Assembly: GCA_018831195.1 (NCBI GenBank)
Contig: JAHJDP010000031.1
Coordinates: 7,151-71,150 of the forward strand
DNA: 64,000 nt
Direction: 5' to 3'
From: Candidatus Eiseniibacteriota bacterium
GTDB lineage: Bacteria > Eisenbacteria > RBG-16-71-46 > CAIMUX01 > JAHJDP01
Both the position numbers and the translations under genes were made by a program. The notes under the pieces were generated by a model. The model searched no databases and was not told the origin of the DNA. It saw nothing but the letters and a program-made list of their open reading frames with translations. Position 1 is the first letter of the stretch. Each line of letters starts with the position of its first letter. This document shows positions 5,686-57,098 of this stretch, one piece after another.

Positions 5686-6411
5686 ATGAAAGCGGCAATC
5701 CCAATTTTGTTTCTCAGTATGCTGATTCCGGCGGCACTTACTATGGAAGCGGCCGGCGACGCCCTTGATTTGGGTTTCTCCACCAATACGATCCTTATCG
5801 AAAGCGAAACGGGCAGGGATTGTGAGCTTCCATTTGAGTATCTGATAAATGACGACGGGTCTTTCGAGAACGGATACGCCTGGTCCCATGACGGAGCCTT
5901 GGAGCCGTACTATGGGGCTTGGGCGGAGAGCTTCCCCCAGGGATGGGTCCGCAGTCTTGCCTTTTGGTTCACCCAGACCGGAGACTGGGCCGGCCAATCA
6001 TTGGATGCCTACATTTGGGAATATGATGCCGGGAACCCCGGCAATGTCCGCTGCCTGATTCCCGATCAAATCATAGACATGCCGGCTTACTGGCCTACAT
6101 TCTCAGCACATGAAGTTGAGGTTAATTGTGATACCGGCGATTTGCATTTCGCCGGATTTTGGGGAAACTGGCCGGATGAACAAAACGGGTGGTTTCTGGC
6201 GGCCGATGAAGACGGTCCCGGCGTAGGAGATCCAAGAACGAATATTTCCCCCCTTGCCACGGAATGGCCGCAGGGTTGGCACCACCCGAATATCCTGCCC
6301 CCCTTTGAAGAGTGTAAGAATCTCGGCATTCATGAGTGCTGGGTGGCGGGGGTCCACCCGACCGCCGCCAACCAAGCGACCTGGGGATCCATAAAATCGC
6401 TCTATCGTTGA
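5686..6411 (+). CDS. Secreted Cys-rich hypothetical protein ending in the TWGxIKxLY C-terminal tail
   Basis: RBS GGAGGAT; signal peptide MKAAIPILFLSMLIPAALTMEAAG; ends ...AANQATWGSIKSLYR; tail shared with three other proteins in window. Confidence 0.7.
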   Translation: MKAAIPILFLSMLIPAALTMEAAGDALDLGFSTNTILIESETGRDCELPFEYLINDDGSFENGYAWSHDGALEPYYGAWAESFPQGWVRSLAFWFTQTGDWAGQSLDAYIWEYDAGNPGNVRCLIPDQIIDMPAYWPTFSAHEVEVNCDTGDLHFAGFWGNWPDEQNGWFLAADEDGPGVGDPRTNISPLATEWPQGWHHPNILPPFEECKNLGIHECWVAGVHPTAANQATWGSIKSLYR

Positions 6412-12219: not shown

Positions 12220-13395
12220 ATGAGGATTCCCACCCATCTGAGGCCATTCTACGCCGCCCTGATCTTGATACTCCTCTTTCTCTTCCCACCCTCTCACGCC
12301 ACCGCCGATGGAGACGCCCGGGGGAAAATCGCCGTTATCGAAGATGCTGCGATGCTGCATGCCTTCAGCACGGAGACGGGACATTGGTCATCCCTCAACT
12401 ACAGCGGAAGCGTGATGACCCATCTTCTCAGCGACTATCTGGGTCTCTTCATAACGGATGAGAATGTTTATGCCTACAATCCGATCAGTAATAACTGGGT
12501 GCCCCACCACTATCTTGGAAACCTCCTGGGATGGGATCTCAAGTCGGCCACCGCGGTCTGCTGGACGGCGAACAACTGCTTTGCCGTCGCAACGATTTGG
12601 GCTCAATGGAATGTCGAGCCGATGTCCTATCGAGAGCGGGTGATCGGAGCCGGTTCGGCCGGCAATTTCGCTCTTGTGTGGACAAATGTGCGCGCCTTGG
12701 CCTACAGCTCGGGAACAGGCGCTTGGGTTACGATCCAACTGCCGGAAAGAGCGGTTGGCGGGCTTGCCTCCGACGGATTGGGGCTTGTTTGGACCGATGC
12801 CAGTGTCTATGCCTTTGACGCGACGCCCCCCGGCGCTTGGATACCGCTTGGTCTGGAGGGGGTTCAAGGGATCAGCGCCGCGGGATCGGGGGAAATCGGT
12901 TTGATCTGGGGTGACAATGAGGCCCTGGCCTACAGCGGCGTCCTGAACGATTGGTTTAACATAAATAGCGATCAGTCGTTTCTTGGAGGCGTCGCCGGCG
13001 GCGAGGTCGGGTTGATCTGGACCGAGACAAAGGCTTTCGGCTTCAATGCATGGACCGGTCAATGGGTGAGTCTCTCTCTGCAACCAGAGACATCCGGCGT
13101 GGAGGAGCCATCGCAAAGCTCATCGGACCAATTCAGGATCTCTCCGAACCCCTGCGCGGGCCCCACCATGAGCTTCCAGCTTCCCGGTGATTCATCCTGG
13201 AGATTGGATATTGTTGATGTCACCGGACGCCGTGTTCGACGGTTTGATTCTTCAGAACTCTCTCCGGGCGCCTCGTTGGAATGGAATCGCACCGATGAAG
13301 AGGGCCGGTCGTTGCAAGCCGGTGTCTACTGGGTTCAGGCGAGATCAGAGAACCGCGAGGAAGTCCGGCGGATTGTTCTTCTGCCGCCGCAATAG
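12220..13395 (+). CDS. Secreted protein with seven tandem 38-residue repeats and a T9SS-type C-terminal sorting domain
   Basis: RBS GGAGGT; signal peptide; repeats with consensus GLIWTDxxAYAYxxxTGxWV at strict 38-aa period x7; C-terminus SPNPCAG..RLDIVDVTGRRV..WNRTDEEGRSLQAGVYWVQAR..RRIVLL matches the T9SS C-terminal-domain / Por_Secre_tail pattern. Confidence 0.75.
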   Translation: MRIPTHLRPFYAALILILLFLFPPSHATADGDARGKIAVIEDAAMLHAFSTETGHWSSLNYSGSVMTHLLSDYLGLFITDENVYAYNPISNNWVPHHYLGNLLGWDLKSATAVCWTANNCFAVATIWAQWNVEPMSYRERVIGAGSAGNFALVWTNVRALAYSSGTGAWVTIQLPERAVGGLASDGLGLVWTDASVYAFDATPPGAWIPLGLEGVQGISAAGSGEIGLIWGDNEALAYSGVLNDWFNINSDQSFLGGVAGGEVGLIWTETKAFGFNAWTGQWVSLSLQPETSGVEEPSQSSSDQFRISPNPCAGPTMSFQLPGDSSWRLDIVDVTGRRVRRFDSSELSPGASLEWNRTDEEGRSLQAGVYWVQARSENREEVRRIVLLPPQ

Positions 13396-13495: not shown

Positions 13496-14254
13496 TTATT
13501 CGTAGAGTCTCTTGATCTGACCCCACGTGCTTTCCCGTGTGGGCGTCGGCTCGTTACAAAGGGCGTTAAAGAAGGTCACGGTTTCGGTCTCCCCCCATTC
13601 GAGATTGATAATCTGTGATTCGGGGTAGATCGGCTCCCAATCCGGCGGCATGATTTCCGATACTATATATTCACCGAGAAGGAGACCCTCCCAGCAGAAG
13701 CGACCGGAGTTGTCCGTCATCCGGCAAAATTGATCGCCATAGGGAGTCTCGATACAGACCCACCAGCCGGGAATAGGAAGATCCACATCGGTCAGGATTT
13801 CATTGCAATCGGTATCTTCATACTTCTCGGCGCAGATCGTTCCCGTGCCATTACAAACATAAAAGGTCACTTCGGCAATCGCCTCATCGCCCGCCTCAAA
13901 TGACCAGTATTCCAGACGGATCCAATATTTCCCGTCGAGGAGACTGTTTGGAACCGTCCAATACCGAGTGATGCTCATGCCGGTGGCGCCTGGATAGGTT
14001 TCCGTATCGAGGAGAATTGTCTGTGTGGGATCCCACAATTCAAAGAGCACATAGTTCGGAGTCGTGGAATAGGTTATCTCCCATGAAATCTCAACCTGGC
14101 CGCCCGGATTCTCGACGCAAAAGGGTGGTTCCGGCTCTCGTCCCAGATTGATCGTTGCCTCGGATATGTCCGCCAGAAGCGGTGTCGCCATGATGGCCGC
14201 GAGGACCAAAACCAAGAGAACCTTCAATGCTATCATGTTGCCGTTCAATTTCAT
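13496..14254 (-). CDS. Secreted Cys-rich protein, tandem paralog 1, ending ...EPTPTRESTWGQIKRLYE
   Basis: RBS AAGGGAGGAG before MKLNGN; signal peptide ending LLAD; ~70% identical to the next gene. Confidence 0.75.
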   Translation of the reverse strand: MKLNGNMIALKVLLVLVLAAIMATPLLADISEATINLGREPEPPFCVENPGGQVEISWEITYSTTPNYVLFELWDPTQTILLDTETYPGATGMSITRYWTVPNSLLDGKYWIRLEYWSFEAGDEAIAEVTFYVCNGTGTICAEKYEDTDCNEILTDVDLPIPGWWVCIETPYGDQFCRMTDNSGRFCWEGLLLGEYIVSEIMPPDWEPIYPESQIINLEWGETETVTFFNALCNEPTPTRESTWGQIKRLYE

Positions 14255-14503: not shown

Positions 14504-15262
14504 CTATTCGTAGATTCTCTTGATCTGGCCCCATGTGCTTTCACGAGTTGGTGTTGGCTCAGGGCACATGCTGTTGAAGAAGGTGATGGTGATCGACTCA
14601 CCCCACTCAAGATCAACAAGCTGAGATATGGGATAAATAGGCACCCAGTCGGGCTGCATGACCTCAAAAACCGTGTATTGACCGAGCTGGAGACCATCCC
14701 AACAGGCGATTCCGTATTGATCGGTTTGCTGACAGTACTGATCGCCATAGGGGGTTTCCAAGCAAACCCACCAACCCTGGATGGGGAGATCGGCCCTATT
14801 CAGAATGCCGTCGCAATCGGTATCATCCCACTTCTCAGCGCAGATGCTGCCGGTACCATTACAAACGTAGAAAGAGACTTCGGCATTGGCTTCATTGCCG
14901 GCCTCGTATGACCAAAACTCGATTCGGATCCAATATTTCCCATCAACAAGCCCATTCGGGACAACCCAACTCCGCATGATGTTCACACCCGTTGCGCCGG
15001 GATAGGTTTCGGTTTCAAGCAGAACCGTCATGGTGGGATCCCAAAGCTCATAGAGGACAAAATTCGGTGTCGTCTCGTATGTGACGAACCAGTTGATATC
15101 GAGTGTTCCCCCTGGATTTTCAACGCAGTACGGCGGTTCAGGCTCCCGTCCCAGGTTGATTGTGGCTTCCATCGGATCAGCCAGGACTGGAACGATCAAA
15201 GTGATGGCTAATGTTAAAGCCAAACAAACGGTGAGGATTGAACGGCTGGCGTGAGTCTTCAT
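14504..15262 (-). CDS. Secreted Cys-rich protein, tandem paralog 2, ending ...EPTPTRESTWGQIKRIYE
   Basis: RBS GGGAGGGG before MKTHAS; signal peptide ending VLAD; shares CVENPGG, CNGTG-IC-AEK, WWVC-ETPYGDQ-C motifs with paralog 1. Confidence 0.75.
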   Translation of the reverse strand: MKTHASRSILTVCLALTLAITLIVPVLADPMEATINLGREPEPPYCVENPGGTLDINWFVTYETTPNFVLYELWDPTMTVLLETETYPGATGVNIMRSWVVPNGLVDGKYWIRIEFWSYEAGNEANAEVSFYVCNGTGSICAEKWDDTDCDGILNRADLPIQGWWVCLETPYGDQYCQQTDQYGIACWDGLQLGQYTVFEVMQPDWVPIYPISQLVDLEWGESITITFFNSMCPEPTPTRESTWGQIKRIYE

Positions 15263-15489: not shown

Positions 15490-15936
15490 TTACGGCCTGT
15501 TCTCTGGGGGCGGCGGGCCGATTTGGGTGCCAATGCCGACACCGGGAAATCCGGTGTCTCTCACGATATCGAGTATCCAGACAACCTCTCCATGGCGGAC
15601 CCCCGCCTCGGCCTTAATCATCACCCGGCTCTGGGGATCGGCCGCCAGGATCTCGAGCAAGCGTCCCTTGAGTTGGGGCATGGGCGTCTCCTCGCCATCG
15701 AGAATAAGACGGCCGCTTTCGGTCATGATGACCTCGACCTCATGCGCCAGCTCCCCCTCCAACGCCGGCGTCGACGTGGTCGAGCGCGGCAATTGAAGTT
15801 CGAGCTCACCCACCCGTTTGAAGGTCCCGGTCACAGCAAAGAAAATGATCAATAGGAAAAGAACATCGATCAATGGTGTCACATTGAGGGTGATCTGCTT
15901 GCGCTCTTTTCCGATCCGGAAGGAGATGGCGCTCAT
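15490..15936 (-). CDS. exbD: ExbD/TolR biopolymer transport protein
   Basis: NVTPLIDVLFLLIIFF TM motif typical of ExbD. Confidence 0.85.
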   Translation of the reverse strand: MSAISFRIGKERKQITLNVTPLIDVLFLLIIFFAVTGTFKRVGELELQLPRSTTSTPALEGELAHEVEVIMTESGRLILDGEETPMPQLKGRLLEILAADPQSRVMIKAEAGVRHGEVVWILDIVRDTGFPGVGIGTQIGPPPPENRP

Positions 15937-16601
15937 CGGTCCACCTCCCTTGATGAGGTCGCGGATGACGTCATCGATGCGGCCGCCGGTGAGGCCGGGT
16001 GGTTCAAACGAAGTTGAGCCACCAGATGCCCGGCATAGGCTTCTATTTCGGCGACGAGGGTTTCGGATTTTGAGGCGAGGACATTGTAAGTGATAAGGGA
16101 GGGAATGCCGATTCCCAGCCCGATGGCCGTCGTGACAATCGCCTCGCTGATGCCGCCGGAAAGGGCCTGCGGATCACCCAGACCGGAGAGAGAGATCGAG
16201 GCGAACATCTTTATCATTCCCAGCACCGTTCCAAGCAGGCCGAGCAACGGCGCCGCCTGCGCGATTGTTTGTAACCAGACAAGATGCCGTTCCAACACGG
16301 CTGTCTTTTGACGGCCCATATCGACCAGCATGTCGCGCATGATTTCCCATGGTTCATGGGCGTATTCGAGTCCGACGAGGATCACATCCGAAAAGACACC
16401 CGGGTTACGCCGGCAGACTTCAATCGCAAGATCCAGCTCACGGTTGGGACGAACCGCTTCAACCACCTCGATGATTTCGCGGGGCAGCACGCGGCTCCGT
16501 CTCAGGGCCAGTATCCGCTCGATCGCAATCGTGGTCGCAACAATGCTGCAGAGCGCCAGCGGGTAAATGAGGGGTCCGGCCTTTTGCAGGAACTCAAACA
16601 T
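15933..16601 (-). CDS. exbB: ExbB/TolQ/MotA-family proton channel
   Basis: Three TM helices, GLLGTVLGMI motif; 4-nt overlap with exbD. Confidence 0.85.
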   Translation of the reverse strand: MFEFLQKAGPLIYPLALCSIVATTIAIERILALRRSRVLPREIIEVVEAVRPNRELDLAIEVCRRNPGVFSDVILVGLEYAHEPWEIMRDMLVDMGRQKTAVLERHLVWLQTIAQAAPLLGLLGTVLGMIKMFASISLSGLGDPQALSGGISEAIVTTAIGLGIGIPSLITYNVLASKSETLVAEIEAYAGHLVAQLRLNHPASPAAASMTSSATSSREVDR

Positions 16602-16626: not shown

Positions 16627-17790
16627 CTAACGCCGAGAGCGCGGGCGCCCCGTCTCTTGGCGCTGAGTCTCTGGTGGTAGCGCCTTGTAACTCATACGAA
16701 TTTGAAGGATCAGGGTCTTCTCTGGAAAATGGCTGGGAAGGGGGTCATAGGGGGCCGCCTTCCGGAGCGCGTCGACACTGGCCTCCCGAAGCGCTTGGTG
16801 GCCGTCCGCCGCGATGACATCACACCGGAGAAGCTCGCCGGTCAGCGCGATCTCAAGCTCGCAATCAGTATAACCATGTATCAAGCCGAGATGGTATCCG
16901 AGCGGGGCAATCCATTTTTGTATAACTTTGCGCCGAAACTGCTGCATCCAGTAACCATAGGCCCATTCAGTCGTATTGAGACTGATAATCCCCGAGAGAT
17001 CGGTATTCCCGCCGGGGCTCGACATCGCCTCTTGCGCGATATCGCTCATTCCAAGGGGCTGGATACGCCGTTGCGCTGAGTCGGAGGCGAGACCCTGCTC
17101 CAGGAAAGATTTCATGGGATGCTCCAGTCCCGCGCCTTTGGGAATCAGAAAAGAGCTTCCCGTTTCAGATGGTTCAGGCGTTTCTTTTATTTCCGGTGAT
17201 TCTATATTTTCAGCGGTAACCTCGGGTTCCGCGCCCTTATCTTCGGGCTTTTCCTCGGGCTTGACCGCCTCAGGCGCCGTGGCATCTTCCGGCCTTTCCG
17301 TCTCAGCCGTCATTCCCTGCGCCGTCCCCTGGTCCATCCTGATCTGCGGGGCGTCGGAGTAACCCTCCTGGCGCGGCAGCGCCCCGGCCTCTCCTCCGGG
17401 CAGGTCGTCCCGCGTGCGGCTCGTGACGTTGCTGAGATAATCGGCCCGCTCGGGAGGATCATCCGCCCGATCGGGTGGGAGTTCGGTGAAAAAGGTCGGC
17501 TCTTCCGGCGTCGGGGGTTGGGGGTCCGGTTCCGGCGCAAAGACGACCTGAATCGGCTCCGGCGCTTCCTTTTGTGCCAAGGCCGGTTCCACAAGATGCA
17601 GGAATTGAGCCGCGAGGAGAACTCCAAAATGGAGCATCAGCGTGAGGATAAAGGCAAAGATCCAGACACCCCGTCTTGACCGATGTTGCCCGAGTATCGG
17701 GGTTTGCGGCCCCGGTCCACCCGGCCTGGTCATCAGTGTCGCTTGGTGGGAAATATTCATCGAGTGTCTCGGTTTGCGGATCATCGGCAC
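16627..17790 (-). CDS. TonB-like energy transducer (N-terminal TM anchor, Pro/Glu-rich spacer, C-terminal TonB domain)
   Basis: TM VWIFAFILTLMLHFGVLLAA, long PEP/PEE-rich region, C-terminal domain with ...YPxxAxxxxxG pattern (KWIAPLGYHLGLIHGY...LRKAAPYDPLPSHF); start GTG 17790 or ATG 17784. Confidence 0.7.
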   Translation of the reverse strand: MPMIRKPRHSMNISHQATLMTRPGGPGPQTPILGQHRSRRGVWIFAFILTLMLHFGVLLAAQFLHLVEPALAQKEAPEPIQVVFAPEPDPQPPTPEEPTFFTELPPDRADDPPERADYLSNVTSRTRDDLPGGEAGALPRQEGYSDAPQIRMDQGTAQGMTAETERPEDATAPEAVKPEEKPEDKGAEPEVTAENIESPEIKETPEPSETGSSFLIPKGAGLEHPMKSFLEQGLASDSAQRRIQPLGMSDIAQEAMSSPGGNTDLSGIISLNTTEWAYGYWMQQFRRKVIQKWIAPLGYHLGLIHGYTDCELEIALTGELLRCDVIAADGHQALREASVDALRKAAPYDPLPSHFPEKTLILQIRMSYKALPPETQRQETGRPRSRR

Positions 17791-56321: not shown

Positions 56322-57098
56322 CTATTGATATATCGATTTGACACCTCCCCATGTTGTGAGCTTTCTTGGAGTCGGCTGGCATGGATTGGGCTCGCAGGAA
56401 CCACCGAACCAATCACCACCACCCTCCAAACATTCAGAGCTATGCAGTAGCAGGCAAGTAGAACCGAAACAACAGGCGCCGTATTCCGGATTCCACGGCG
56501 GACATTCCGGATTCCAACCGGGCGCGCCGCCGTACCCCATGGCTCCGAAGCCCTCAATGAGGTCAAGCGTCGCCGGTTCGGAACAGTCAGCGACCGCCGC
56601 ATGGTTTAAGGGATGATCGACGAGCGGAATCTCTCCGGCGGCGGCATAGACATAAATGCCAAAGTAATAGACGGGCACCATCTGGCCATATGAGCAATCG
56701 GGTGTCCAGGCGACCGCCGTTCCGGTTCCAGGAGCCGGCCATCCGGCGGTCGGCGCCTCGAGTGCGCCCGGTTTGCAGGAACCGAAATATCCGATATAGG
56801 TTTCGCTGGGTGTGTAATCCCCCAGTCCAAATGTCACCATATTGAAATTCGTCGCATTGCCGCGGGGCGAGACAACAAGAATGAGATACCAATAGACGTC
56901 GATTAGAGGATCGGGAATCGCCGATGGTATGAGATCGATGCAATCCTCGGGTACTTCAATTTGCTCACAGGGATCTGGAGGATACCAAGGCTCACCCTGA
57001 TTCCCGTGGACGGCCAAAACCACCCCTGCATTGGATCCGGCATGAGCGGAGCCCATGGTGAGCACGGTACAAACCAACAAATATGACAGGAGTTTCAT
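56322..57098 (-). CDS. Secreted Cys-rich hypothetical protein ending ...PTPRKLTTWGGVKSIYQ
   Basis: Signal peptide MKLLSYLLVCTVLTMGSAHA; same C-terminal tail as 5686..6411 and the tandem paralogs. Confidence 0.7.
   Translation of the reverse strand: MKLLSYLLVCTVLTMGSAHAGSNAGVVLAVHGNQGEPWYPPDPCEQIEVPEDCIDLIPSAIPDPLIDVYWYLILVVSPRGNATNFNMVTFGLGDYTPSETYIGYFGSCKPGALEAPTAGWPAPGTGTAVAWTPDCSYGQMVPVYYFGIYVYAAAGEIPLVDHPLNHAAVADCSEPATLDLIEGFGAMGYGGAPGWNPECPPWNPEYGACCFGSTCLLLHSSECLEGGGDWFGGSCEPNPCQPTPRKLTTWGGVKSIYQ

Follow-up and report, generated by a model that had tools for sequence, protein, structure and literature searches.

Four exported proteins of one contig end in the same tail

The stretch of DNA analysed here (the window; 64,000 nucleotides of contig JAHJDP010000031.1 of Candidatus Eiseniibacteriota bacterium) encodes four exported proteins, P1 to P4, that end in the same short peptide, a tail of ~17 residues with the consensus …[TV]-[PA]-[VTA]-xxx-[ST]-W-G-x-I-K-x-L-Y-R-stop. 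A preliminary description of this DNA had singled out the tail as a candidate undescribed sorting tag, and we characterized both the tail and the proteins that carry it. The four genes and their tails are located as follows.

5686..6411, + strand: P1, exported protein of 241 aa; open reading frame (ORF) with signal peptide, jelly-roll/MAM/CBM-like beta-sandwich, linker and tail
6358..6408, + strand: tail of P1, PTAANQATWGSIKSLYR, with the stop codon at 6409..6411
13496..14254, - strand: P2, exported protein of 252 aa with Ig-like and SdrD_B/prealbumin-like domains (sub-threshold), ending in the tail
13499..13549, - strand: tail of P2, PTPTRESTWGQIKRLYE; the strict DNA pattern lies at 13502..13549, with 0 matches expected in shuffles
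14504..15262, - strand: P3, tandem paralogue of P2 (66% identity)
14507..14557, - strand: tail of P3, PTPTRESTWGQIKRIYE
56322..57098, - strand: P4, exported protein of 258 aa with an N-terminal domain, a single Cys-rich module and the tail
56325..56375, - strand: tail of P4, PTPRKLTTWGGVKSIYQ
56379..56480, - strand: Cys-rich module of P4 (GACCFGSTC...C...GGxW..G.C.PNPC), immediately upstream of the tail; part of the cargo, not of the tag

P1 ends in ATWGSIKSLYR (longer stretch, ...HPTAANQATWGSIKSLYR), P2 in ESTWGQIKRLYE (...EPTPTRESTWGQIKRLYE), P3 in ESTWGQIKRIYE, which equals the end of P2 except for RIYE, and P4 in LTTWGGVKSIYQ (...QPTPRKLTTWGGVKSIYQ). All four ORFs and their ends exist as first described, and the regular expression [ST]WG.[IVLM][KR].[ILMV][YFW], run against the six-frame translation of the window, matched at these four places only, each time one residue ahead of the stop, compared to a mean of 0.003 matches in 300 block shuffles. 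The bodies were indeed dissimilar apart from the tandem pair: stripped of their last 20 residues, P1, P2/P3 and P4 had no mutual similarity (BLAST E>0.4). A hydrophobic, signal-peptide-like segment was found at the N-terminus of all four, as had been claimed. Pfam and NCBIfam searches gave no match for P1 and P4, and sub-threshold SdrD_B/Ig-like matches only for P2 and P3. Within the window, the tail ends 4 of ~55 genes.

The tail is a strictly C-terminal module under peptide-level selection

One genome per species was scanned with a DNA pattern encoding P-[TAVI]-P-x4-T-W-G-x-I-K-x-L-Y, in which a stop codon was not demanded, and at least 120 loci were found, compared to ~0.5 chance matches by our own estimate (the information content of the pattern being ~41 bits). 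In all of the strict matches listed (117/117) a stop codon followed 0-8 residues past the Tyr, in 86 of them exactly one residue past it, and a relaxed regular expression recovered 44 further copies from the flanks of the loci (870 kb), 42 of which lay no more than 3 residues from a stop. Metagenome contigs were scanned independently for T-W-G-x-I-K-x-L-Y-R, demanding neither a stop nor the Pro; among the matches listed, the stop came straight after the Arg in 112 of 123 and within 7 residues in all. Together, the two scans yielded at least 240 loci, and both the abundance and the taxonomic range that they give are lower bounds.

We derived the consensus from those samples that the search pattern does not bias: hits in the flanks, representatives of the P1 family and hits in metagenomes. 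Relative to the Trp, the positions read:

-8: P (32-52%)
-7: T/V (~57-82%)
-6: P/A (~76-89%)
-5: V/T/A (~82-89%)
-4 to -2: variable
-1: S/T
0 and +1: W-G; +2 variable
+3: I/V; +4: K; +5: S/A; +6: L; +7: Y/F
+8: R, then the C-terminus

The search expression left little or no freedom at W, G and K, but these residues were invariant in the two alignments built on homology of the bodies as well, A1 (the P1 family) and A6. The former holds 17 homologues, 38-46% identical, which all end in [ST]WGxIKxLY, mostly followed by 0-2 residues. Across cargo families the T, I, L, Y and terminal R of the tail are 72-93% conserved, the terminal Arg being present in 117 of 163 tails although the genome search pattern did not contain it, and a Cys stands 9-12 residues ahead of the Trp in ~45% of tails. 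The Pro/Thr linker that had been noted before the tail is there, but it is not a separate linker; the motif itself includes it as a semi-conserved stretch ([TV] at -7, P/A at -6 and V/T/A at -5).

In the codons for the Pro, Thr, Gly and Leu of the tail, the first and second positions are fixed and the third positions near random (1.35-1.8 bits). As synonymous positions are free while the amino acids are fixed, selection acts on the peptide and not on a DNA or RNA element. The idea that we are looking at a repeated nucleic acid element at the 3' ends of genes, or at a chance resemblance, is favoured by the location at gene ends and by nothing further; it is refuted by the freely varying third positions and by the four window matches against 0.003 expected, the at least 120 loci against ~0.5 estimated speak against it too, and we give it practically no weight. 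The tail is a real module, strictly C-terminal and under selection at the level of the peptide.

A few carriers continue for 10-27 residues past the core, e.g., ISWGALKAVYRAEAPKMSGGAR (L071:3272-4135 on the - strand, P0157, P0165, P0193 and P0245). These may be read-through or frameshift variants; should the extensions be real, the motif does not strictly need a free C-terminus immediately behind it. Tail-only mini-ORFs, or carriers with a seemingly out-of-frame N-terminus, were seen as well (L004:1224-1274, L035:4501-4548, L049:7258-7818 and L054:1582-2133), and likely derive from tail-bearing genes by frameshift, decay or faulty assembly.

By label, the taxa of the genome loci comprise ~47 Eisenbacteria/Eiseniibacteriota, 9 Krumholzibacteriia, 7 Latescibacteria/-ota and 4 odd labels. 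The oddly labelled contigs, assigned to Patescibacteria group, Komeilibacteria, Limnocylindria and Bacteroidota, are L095 (DATKWS010000142.1), L080 (JAZDLR010000003.1), L091 (DASQFU010000067.1) and L041 (JBLMWD010000131.1), and probably represent mis-binned or mislabelled Eisenbacteria-like DNA and not a true occurrence in those phyla. On L095, proteins with the C-terminal domain (CTD) of the secretion system of type IX (T9SS) are carried in addition to the tail-bearing genes.

Carriers are probably exported and have unrelated bodies

Signal-peptide-like N-termini, called with a simple hydrophobicity heuristic of our own and not with SignalP, were found in 137 of the 147 genome carriers with a complete 5' end, compared to 475 of 1880 control ORFs, and in 83 of the 87 such carriers from the metagenome contigs. 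The 10 genome carriers that lacked one are fragments of 15-186 residues, the metagenome exceptions are short fragments too, and so no convincing cytoplasmic protein turned up among these carriers. That the carriers might be lipoproteins was considered and rejected: lipobox-like strings occurred in just 12 of the 137, by eye mostly within the ordinary hydrophobic core of the signal peptide.

The carriers have a median length of ~232 residues (maximum, 2122) and span 18 different Pfam families. Deprived of signal peptide and tail, the 163 genome carriers fell into 64 BLAST clusters, and 83 metagenome carriers into 47. Among the domains that Pfam and NCBIfam assigned to them are Beta_helix, LTD, PKD, Phosphoesterase, CHRD, plastocyanin-type cupredoxin, AhpC/redoxin, NHL, CBM96/DNRLRE and choice-of-anchor R and F. 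The claim that carriers are Cys-rich does not apply in general; many are, but richness in Cys does not define a carrier, as the mature proteins contain from 0 to 108 Cys among the 137 carriers and 25 of these contain 0-1.

Hidden homology between P1 and P4, which share a single-linkage cluster, was likewise rejected, for the two align in the tail only; they meet in one cluster because giant multi-domain proteins contain the P4-like N-domain, the Cys modules and the P1 domain. The Cys-rich module that stands just before the P4 tail, ~34 residues long and unannotated (G-A-C-C-x2-6-C-x5-10-C-x3-16-C-x-P-[ND]-P-C; no Pfam match), occurs in 11 of the 163 carriers. It is present in 4-14 copies in giant Eisenbacteria carriers of 620-1428 aa with up to 108 Cys (L011:3212-7498, L011:1010-3091, L089:3023-7009 and L089:818-2680), in which a P4-like N-domain and the modules are found together with a P1-type domain and the tail, making P1 and P4 parts of one domain repertoire. 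Tail-bearing genes also often form tandem arrays of small paralogues (185-205 aa; four in L048, three in L019), and P2/P3 (13496..15262) are one such array in the window.

The same cargo carries known C-terminal sorting modules in place of the tail

The strongest functional evidence for a sorting role came from anchor swapping. In the largest carrier family, the paralogue L108:5014-5907 aligns across the entire body, yet ends in ...PLVPEPSSLMLLAVPLLGWAGLRVQRGCRSRRG and passes the curated cut-off of the PEP-CTERM model (TIGR02595, 16.1 bits vs. 16); in alignment A5, its VPEP shares columns with the P-x-P of the tail. The domain of this family also forms the N-terminal part of L095:102-2357, whose last domain is a type A T9SS CTD (TIGR04183, 37.8 bits; cut-off, 23). 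Similarly, the neighbour of the CBM-like carrier L088:6088-6738 has the same domain followed by a T9SS CTD (28.2 bits), and the beta-helix carriers have one relative with a T9SS-CTD-like end, sub-threshold at 14.4 bits.

An exhaustive profile search with the P1 family gave 407 cluster representatives. Among 149 sequences from the 150 best P1-domain representatives, 95 were tail-ended, and at least 26 matched the profile only as far as position ~213-222, where the tail would begin to follow, and then continued into other domains and a T9SS CTD, as in P0141 (28.3 bits). None of the 149 carried both the tail and a T9SS CTD, and the tail was never seen together with PEP-CTERM or a T9SS CTD on one protein among those examined. 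In the largest family, 113 of the best 120 members in the protein collection were tail-ended and 7 had degenerate tails.

On the same cargo, the tail and either of two established sorting modules exclude each other, and with one of these the tail shares its alignment position. The proposal of an undescribed sorting tag is supported by these paralogues with PEP-CTERM or a T9SS CTD in the tail's place, and we infer the function itself, sorting or anchoring, from the tail apparently doing the same kind of job as the modules it is swapped with. The PEP-CTERM paralogue suggests that an exosortase is present in that Eisenbacteria metagenome-assembled genome (MAG).

The largest family, an all-beta domain of ~230 residues with the conserved motifs DYVGFDYE, YEDxxxNA, PPNAxxP and DGT, gave 317 matches at E<=0.001 among 8,000 candidates scored. 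Its loci are L009, L013, L022, L025, L042, L079, L105 and L108, where its diverged paralogues nearly always stand in tandem, two or three at a time (e.g., L079:807-1505 and 1517-2200); in L108, the PEP-CTERM paralogue is adjacent. A kinship to the flocculation PEP-CTERM protein PepA was rejected, as the match was weak and sub-threshold, and concerned the PEP-CTERM paralogue only and none of the tail-bearing members.

The tail is predicted to stand off the body on a flexible tether

The structure prediction that had been suggested for the tails was run on two cargo families. In the AlphaFold2 (AF2) model of P1 (17-sequence alignment), a beta-sandwich body with pLDDT>90 was followed by a linker (residues ~220-232; pLDDT 46-60) and a tail helix (233-238; pLDDT<50), and in that of the largest family (79 sequences), a body with pLDDT>93 was followed by a linker (211-216; pLDDT<50) and a tail helix (217-224; pLDDT ~45). 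In both, the tail is predicted to be detached from the body behind a disordered linker, in the latter as an eight-residue helix of low confidence. In a fold search, the P1 body weakly resembled MAM, cleaved-adhesin and CBM jelly-rolls, while the largest family gave no significant PDB match. A last strand of some shared domain, which by the preliminary description would refute the tag, fits neither these models nor the 64 and 47 clusters and 18 Pfam families of the carriers; also against it, the P1 domain occurs in tail-less form, in proteins ending with a T9SS CTD.

A short exposed helix could also bind the envelope directly, with the cationic, Trp/Tyr-rich tail lying in the membrane interface as a lipid or lipopolysaccharide anchor that needs no dedicated machine. 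E. coli PBP5/PBP6 (DacA/DacC) offer a precedent, since they too are Sec-exported and are tethered to the envelope by a short C-terminal helix without a transmembrane segment. Consistent with such an anchor are the short helix in both models, a net charge of +1 to +3 in 91 of 98 distinct tails, periplasm-type cargo (cupredoxin, redoxin) and the fact that no machine was found near the genes in the 120 loci. The PBP anchors, however, comprise ~18 residues, are clearly amphipathic and are poorly conserved in sequence, whereas the core of the tail has just 8-9 residues with an invariant Lys in its middle, and its hydrophobic moment (0.43 as a helix, 0.40 as a strand) does not tell the two apart and stays inside the range of shuffled controls, so it is not significantly amphipathic. 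T, W, G, K, Y and R are conserved position by position over more than 60 families and three phyla, which is atypical of composition-driven lipid anchors and speaks for a conserved protein partner rather than for lipids bound non-specifically. We consider a direct lipid anchor unlikely.

The invariant Lys raises another thought, namely that K-x-L-Y-R-COOH is a peptidoglycan handle, in which the Lys serves as amine donor for an L,D-transpeptidase. Braun lipoprotein (Lpp), which ends in ...K-Y-R-K and is linked to peptidoglycan via its C-terminal Lys, appears to resemble the tail in its YRK. The invariance of the Lys, the near-invariance of Tyr-Arg at the extreme C-terminus and the periplasm-type cargo are all compatible with this idea, but the Lys of the tail is internal (position -5 from the end), much of the cargo (LTD, CBM, PKD, beta-helix, choice-of-anchor) is of a kind typical of surface or extracellular proteins, and what takes the place of the tail is PEP-CTERM or the T9SS CTD and no anchor of the lipoprotein type. 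A peptidoglycan handle thus appears improbable.

A motif that is strictly C-terminal and exposed on a flexible tether could, finally, be a degron or quality-control tag by which a periplasmic tail-specific protease of the Prc/Ctp type sets protein levels. Prc and PDZ domains, however, prefer non-polar C-termini, and the last residue here is usually Arg; moreover, retention of a degron by more than 60 unrelated families, and its exchange for bona fide anchors, would be hard to explain. We hold this to be very improbable.

The tail differs from known C-terminal signals

With PEP-CTERM (TIGR02595) the tail shares its place at the extreme C-terminus of signal-peptide proteins, very diverse cargo of overlapping types (NHL/ScyF-like, choice-of-anchor, DNRLRE), a Pro-containing signature at its start and a basic end. 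It differs in having an 8-9-residue core with an invariant Lys in place of a ~20-residue transmembrane helix, one terminal Arg (117/163 tails) in place of a basic cluster, and P-[TV]-P/A in place of P-E-P. TIGR02595 matched none of the four window proteins, 60 carriers and 7 isolated tails (E<=10).

The T9SS CTD of type A (TIGR04183/PF18962) is similarly a C-terminal module of Sec-exported cargo in FCB-group bacteria; the genomes with the tail have it too, and it alternates with the tail on shared cargo domains. The window itself holds a comparator:

12220..13395, + strand: neighbouring exported protein, outside the tag, with a T9SS-type (FlgD_ig/Por_Secre_tail-like) CTD at ~13138..13377

Its CTD is sub-threshold (TIGR04183, 19.2 bits, cut-off 23; PF13860, 23 bits, cut-off 27). 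The divergent ending of this 391-aa protein (...GVYFYRL...KMVLLK) is common in related loci, and since such ends fall below the curated cut-offs, the standard CTD models may under-call cargo in these phyla.

One could ask whether the tail is a minimal CTD substitute, an ultra-short signal read by the PorV/PorU of the T9SS with which these genomes seem to be equipped. The same loci abound in T9SS-CTD proteins (31 ORFs, spread over 26 of 120 loci), tail and CTD exclude each other on the same cargo domain, and short T9SS CTDs do exist (PMC11969387). These 'short' CTDs, from Prevotella, nevertheless retain motifs B, D and E, with positions numbered to ~60, and nothing as short as the tail is covered in that study (PMC11969387); the tail, at ~17 residues, has none of motifs B, D and E that even short CTDs keep (PMC11969387). 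A T9SS CTD is a folded beta-sandwich, whereas the tail is predicted to be disordered or helical. TIGR04183/PF18962 did not match P1-P4 or the isolated tails, even at E<=10, while the positive controls L095, L088 and P0141 passed the CTD cut-off, and so the preliminary statement that the tail is not a T9SS CTD was borne out. An ultra-short T9SS signal seems to us an improbable reading.

LPXTG, GlyGly-CTERM, MYXO-CTERM and IPTL-CTERM (TIGR04174) also place a short signature close to the C-terminal end of exported proteins. In IPTL-CTERM, the helix begins with a P-T...W-G signature, loosely like the P-T-P...T-W-G of the tail. All of these, however, have a membrane-spanning helix and a basic cluster; the tail has neither, as had been recognized at the outset, and no NCBIfam match. 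The beta-signal of outer-membrane proteins (substrates of BAM) ends a beta-barrel with an aromatic last residue and alternating hydrophobics, whereas the tail usually ends in Arg, spaces its W, I, L and Y at 0, 3, 6 and 7, i.e., not in alternation, and follows soluble beta-sandwich domains or enzymes. The closest analogy for its likely mode of action is probably that of terminal peptides read by a receptor, such as encapsulin cargo-loading peptides, encapsulation peptides of bacterial microcompartments, and eukaryotic PTS1 (SKL) and KDEL, where a very short conserved peptide on a flexible linker marks unrelated cargo for a single receptor or shell protein. The encapsulin and microcompartment peptides differ in being cytoplasmic, on proteins without signal peptides, whereas the tail is on exported proteins and bears no sequence resemblance to them.

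To summarize, the tail lacks every testable defining feature of PEP-CTERM, the T9SS CTD and the other tripartite sortase-type signals, and at the same time has the generic traits of a C-terminal sorting tag, being strictly C-terminal, present on signal-peptide proteins with unrelated cargo and interchangeable with known anchors.

Searches for a model, a precedent and a machine

Pfam and NCBIfam (June 2026) contained no model of the tail when searched with the four window proteins, 60 carriers and isolated tails, and the 7 isolated tails gave no match in either database at E<=10. Padded with random residues and searched against a collection of 5.8 billion proteins, the tail had 10 word-sharing candidates, none of which scored. 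A literature search for the motif strings and for sorting or secretion in Eisenbacteria returned, in the library searched, no paper with the motif or such a tag.

The recurrent neighbours of the tail genes in the 120 loci were only T9SS-CTD proteins (31 ORFs, 26 loci) and kinases/regulators, and the gene content of the window held nothing suggestive of a cognate machine. The window neighbours of the four tail genes are housekeeping genes: pgi and glmS; exbB and exbD; thiL and an M20 peptidase. The ExbD/ExbB pair and an unannotated ORF of 377-387 aa adjoin the P2/P3 tandem (15490..16601 and 16627..17790, both on the - strand), and no evidence for a functional link between these ORFs and P2/P3 was seen. 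Identical copies of the window genes occur in the MAG assemblies GCA_018825035.1 and GCA_018822745.1 and in the runs SRR2540949 and SRR2544004, and the P1 homologues with organism names are from Candidatus Eisenbacteria.

A proposed C-terminal sorting tag

On this evidence we propose, with a probability of roughly 55%, that Sec-exported proteins of Eisenbacteria, Krumholzibacteria and Latescibacteria have in the tail a C-terminal tag for sorting or anchoring, self-contained and specific to these lineages, which a putative partner reads. The tag has two parts, a flexible, Pro-containing linker, [P]-[TV]-[PA]-[VTA]-x3, and a cationic, helix-prone core at the very end of the protein, [ST]-W-G-x-[IV]-K-[SA]-L-[YF]-R. 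The N-terminal signal peptide would carry the protein across the inner membrane, as the observed signal-peptide-like N-termini imply; the body would then fold alone, leaving the tail exposed on a disordered tether, as in the AF2 predictions; and a conserved envelope protein, perhaps acting as receptor, processing enzyme or translocon, would recognise the tail near the free C-terminus and retain the cargo, attach it or pass it on. In function, the tail would hence correspond to PEP-CTERM/exosortase and to the T9SS CTD of the same genomes. More tentatively, and at somewhat less than even odds, it may be the signal of a sorting or attachment system of its own, with a dedicated putative receptor or enzyme in the three lineages and about a hundred carrier proteins per genome, a figure extrapolated from 4 carriers per 64 kb window and 44 extra copies per 870 kb of flanks.

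Several observations weigh against a sorting tag. A conserved machine gene next to the tail genes was not found in the neighbourhoods of the 120 loci, and the tail genes are scattered among housekeeping genes. The helix prediction for the tail is of low confidence, and its hydrophobic moment is no better than that of shuffled tails. Some of the cargo (cupredoxin, ResA/TlpA-like redoxin, phosphoesterase) would fit plain periplasmic retention better than surface display. The signal-peptide calls are those of our own heuristic, and all carrier organisms are uncultured.

C-terminal sorting signals are routinely used for the prediction of surface proteomes, and in the cases of LPXTG, PEP-CTERM, GlyGly-CTERM and the T9SS CTD it was the signal that led to a dedicated envelope machine being discovered. 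The tag proposed here is short, has a sharp definition and, on the same cargo, excludes PEP-CTERM and the T9SS CTD, which makes its role testable now. If the more tentative reading, a sorting system of its own, is true, this would be the first C-terminal tag of no more than 17 residues and without a transmembrane segment for exported proteins in diderm bacteria, and if it works with neither a transmembrane helix nor a folded domain, it would represent a mechanistically new way of sorting exported proteins in diderms. The tail marks a large part of the exported proteome in three uncultured phylum-level lineages, whose carriers are all 'hypothetical' in current annotation, and the tag could improve the prediction of the secretome of these soil, sediment and groundwater bacteria.

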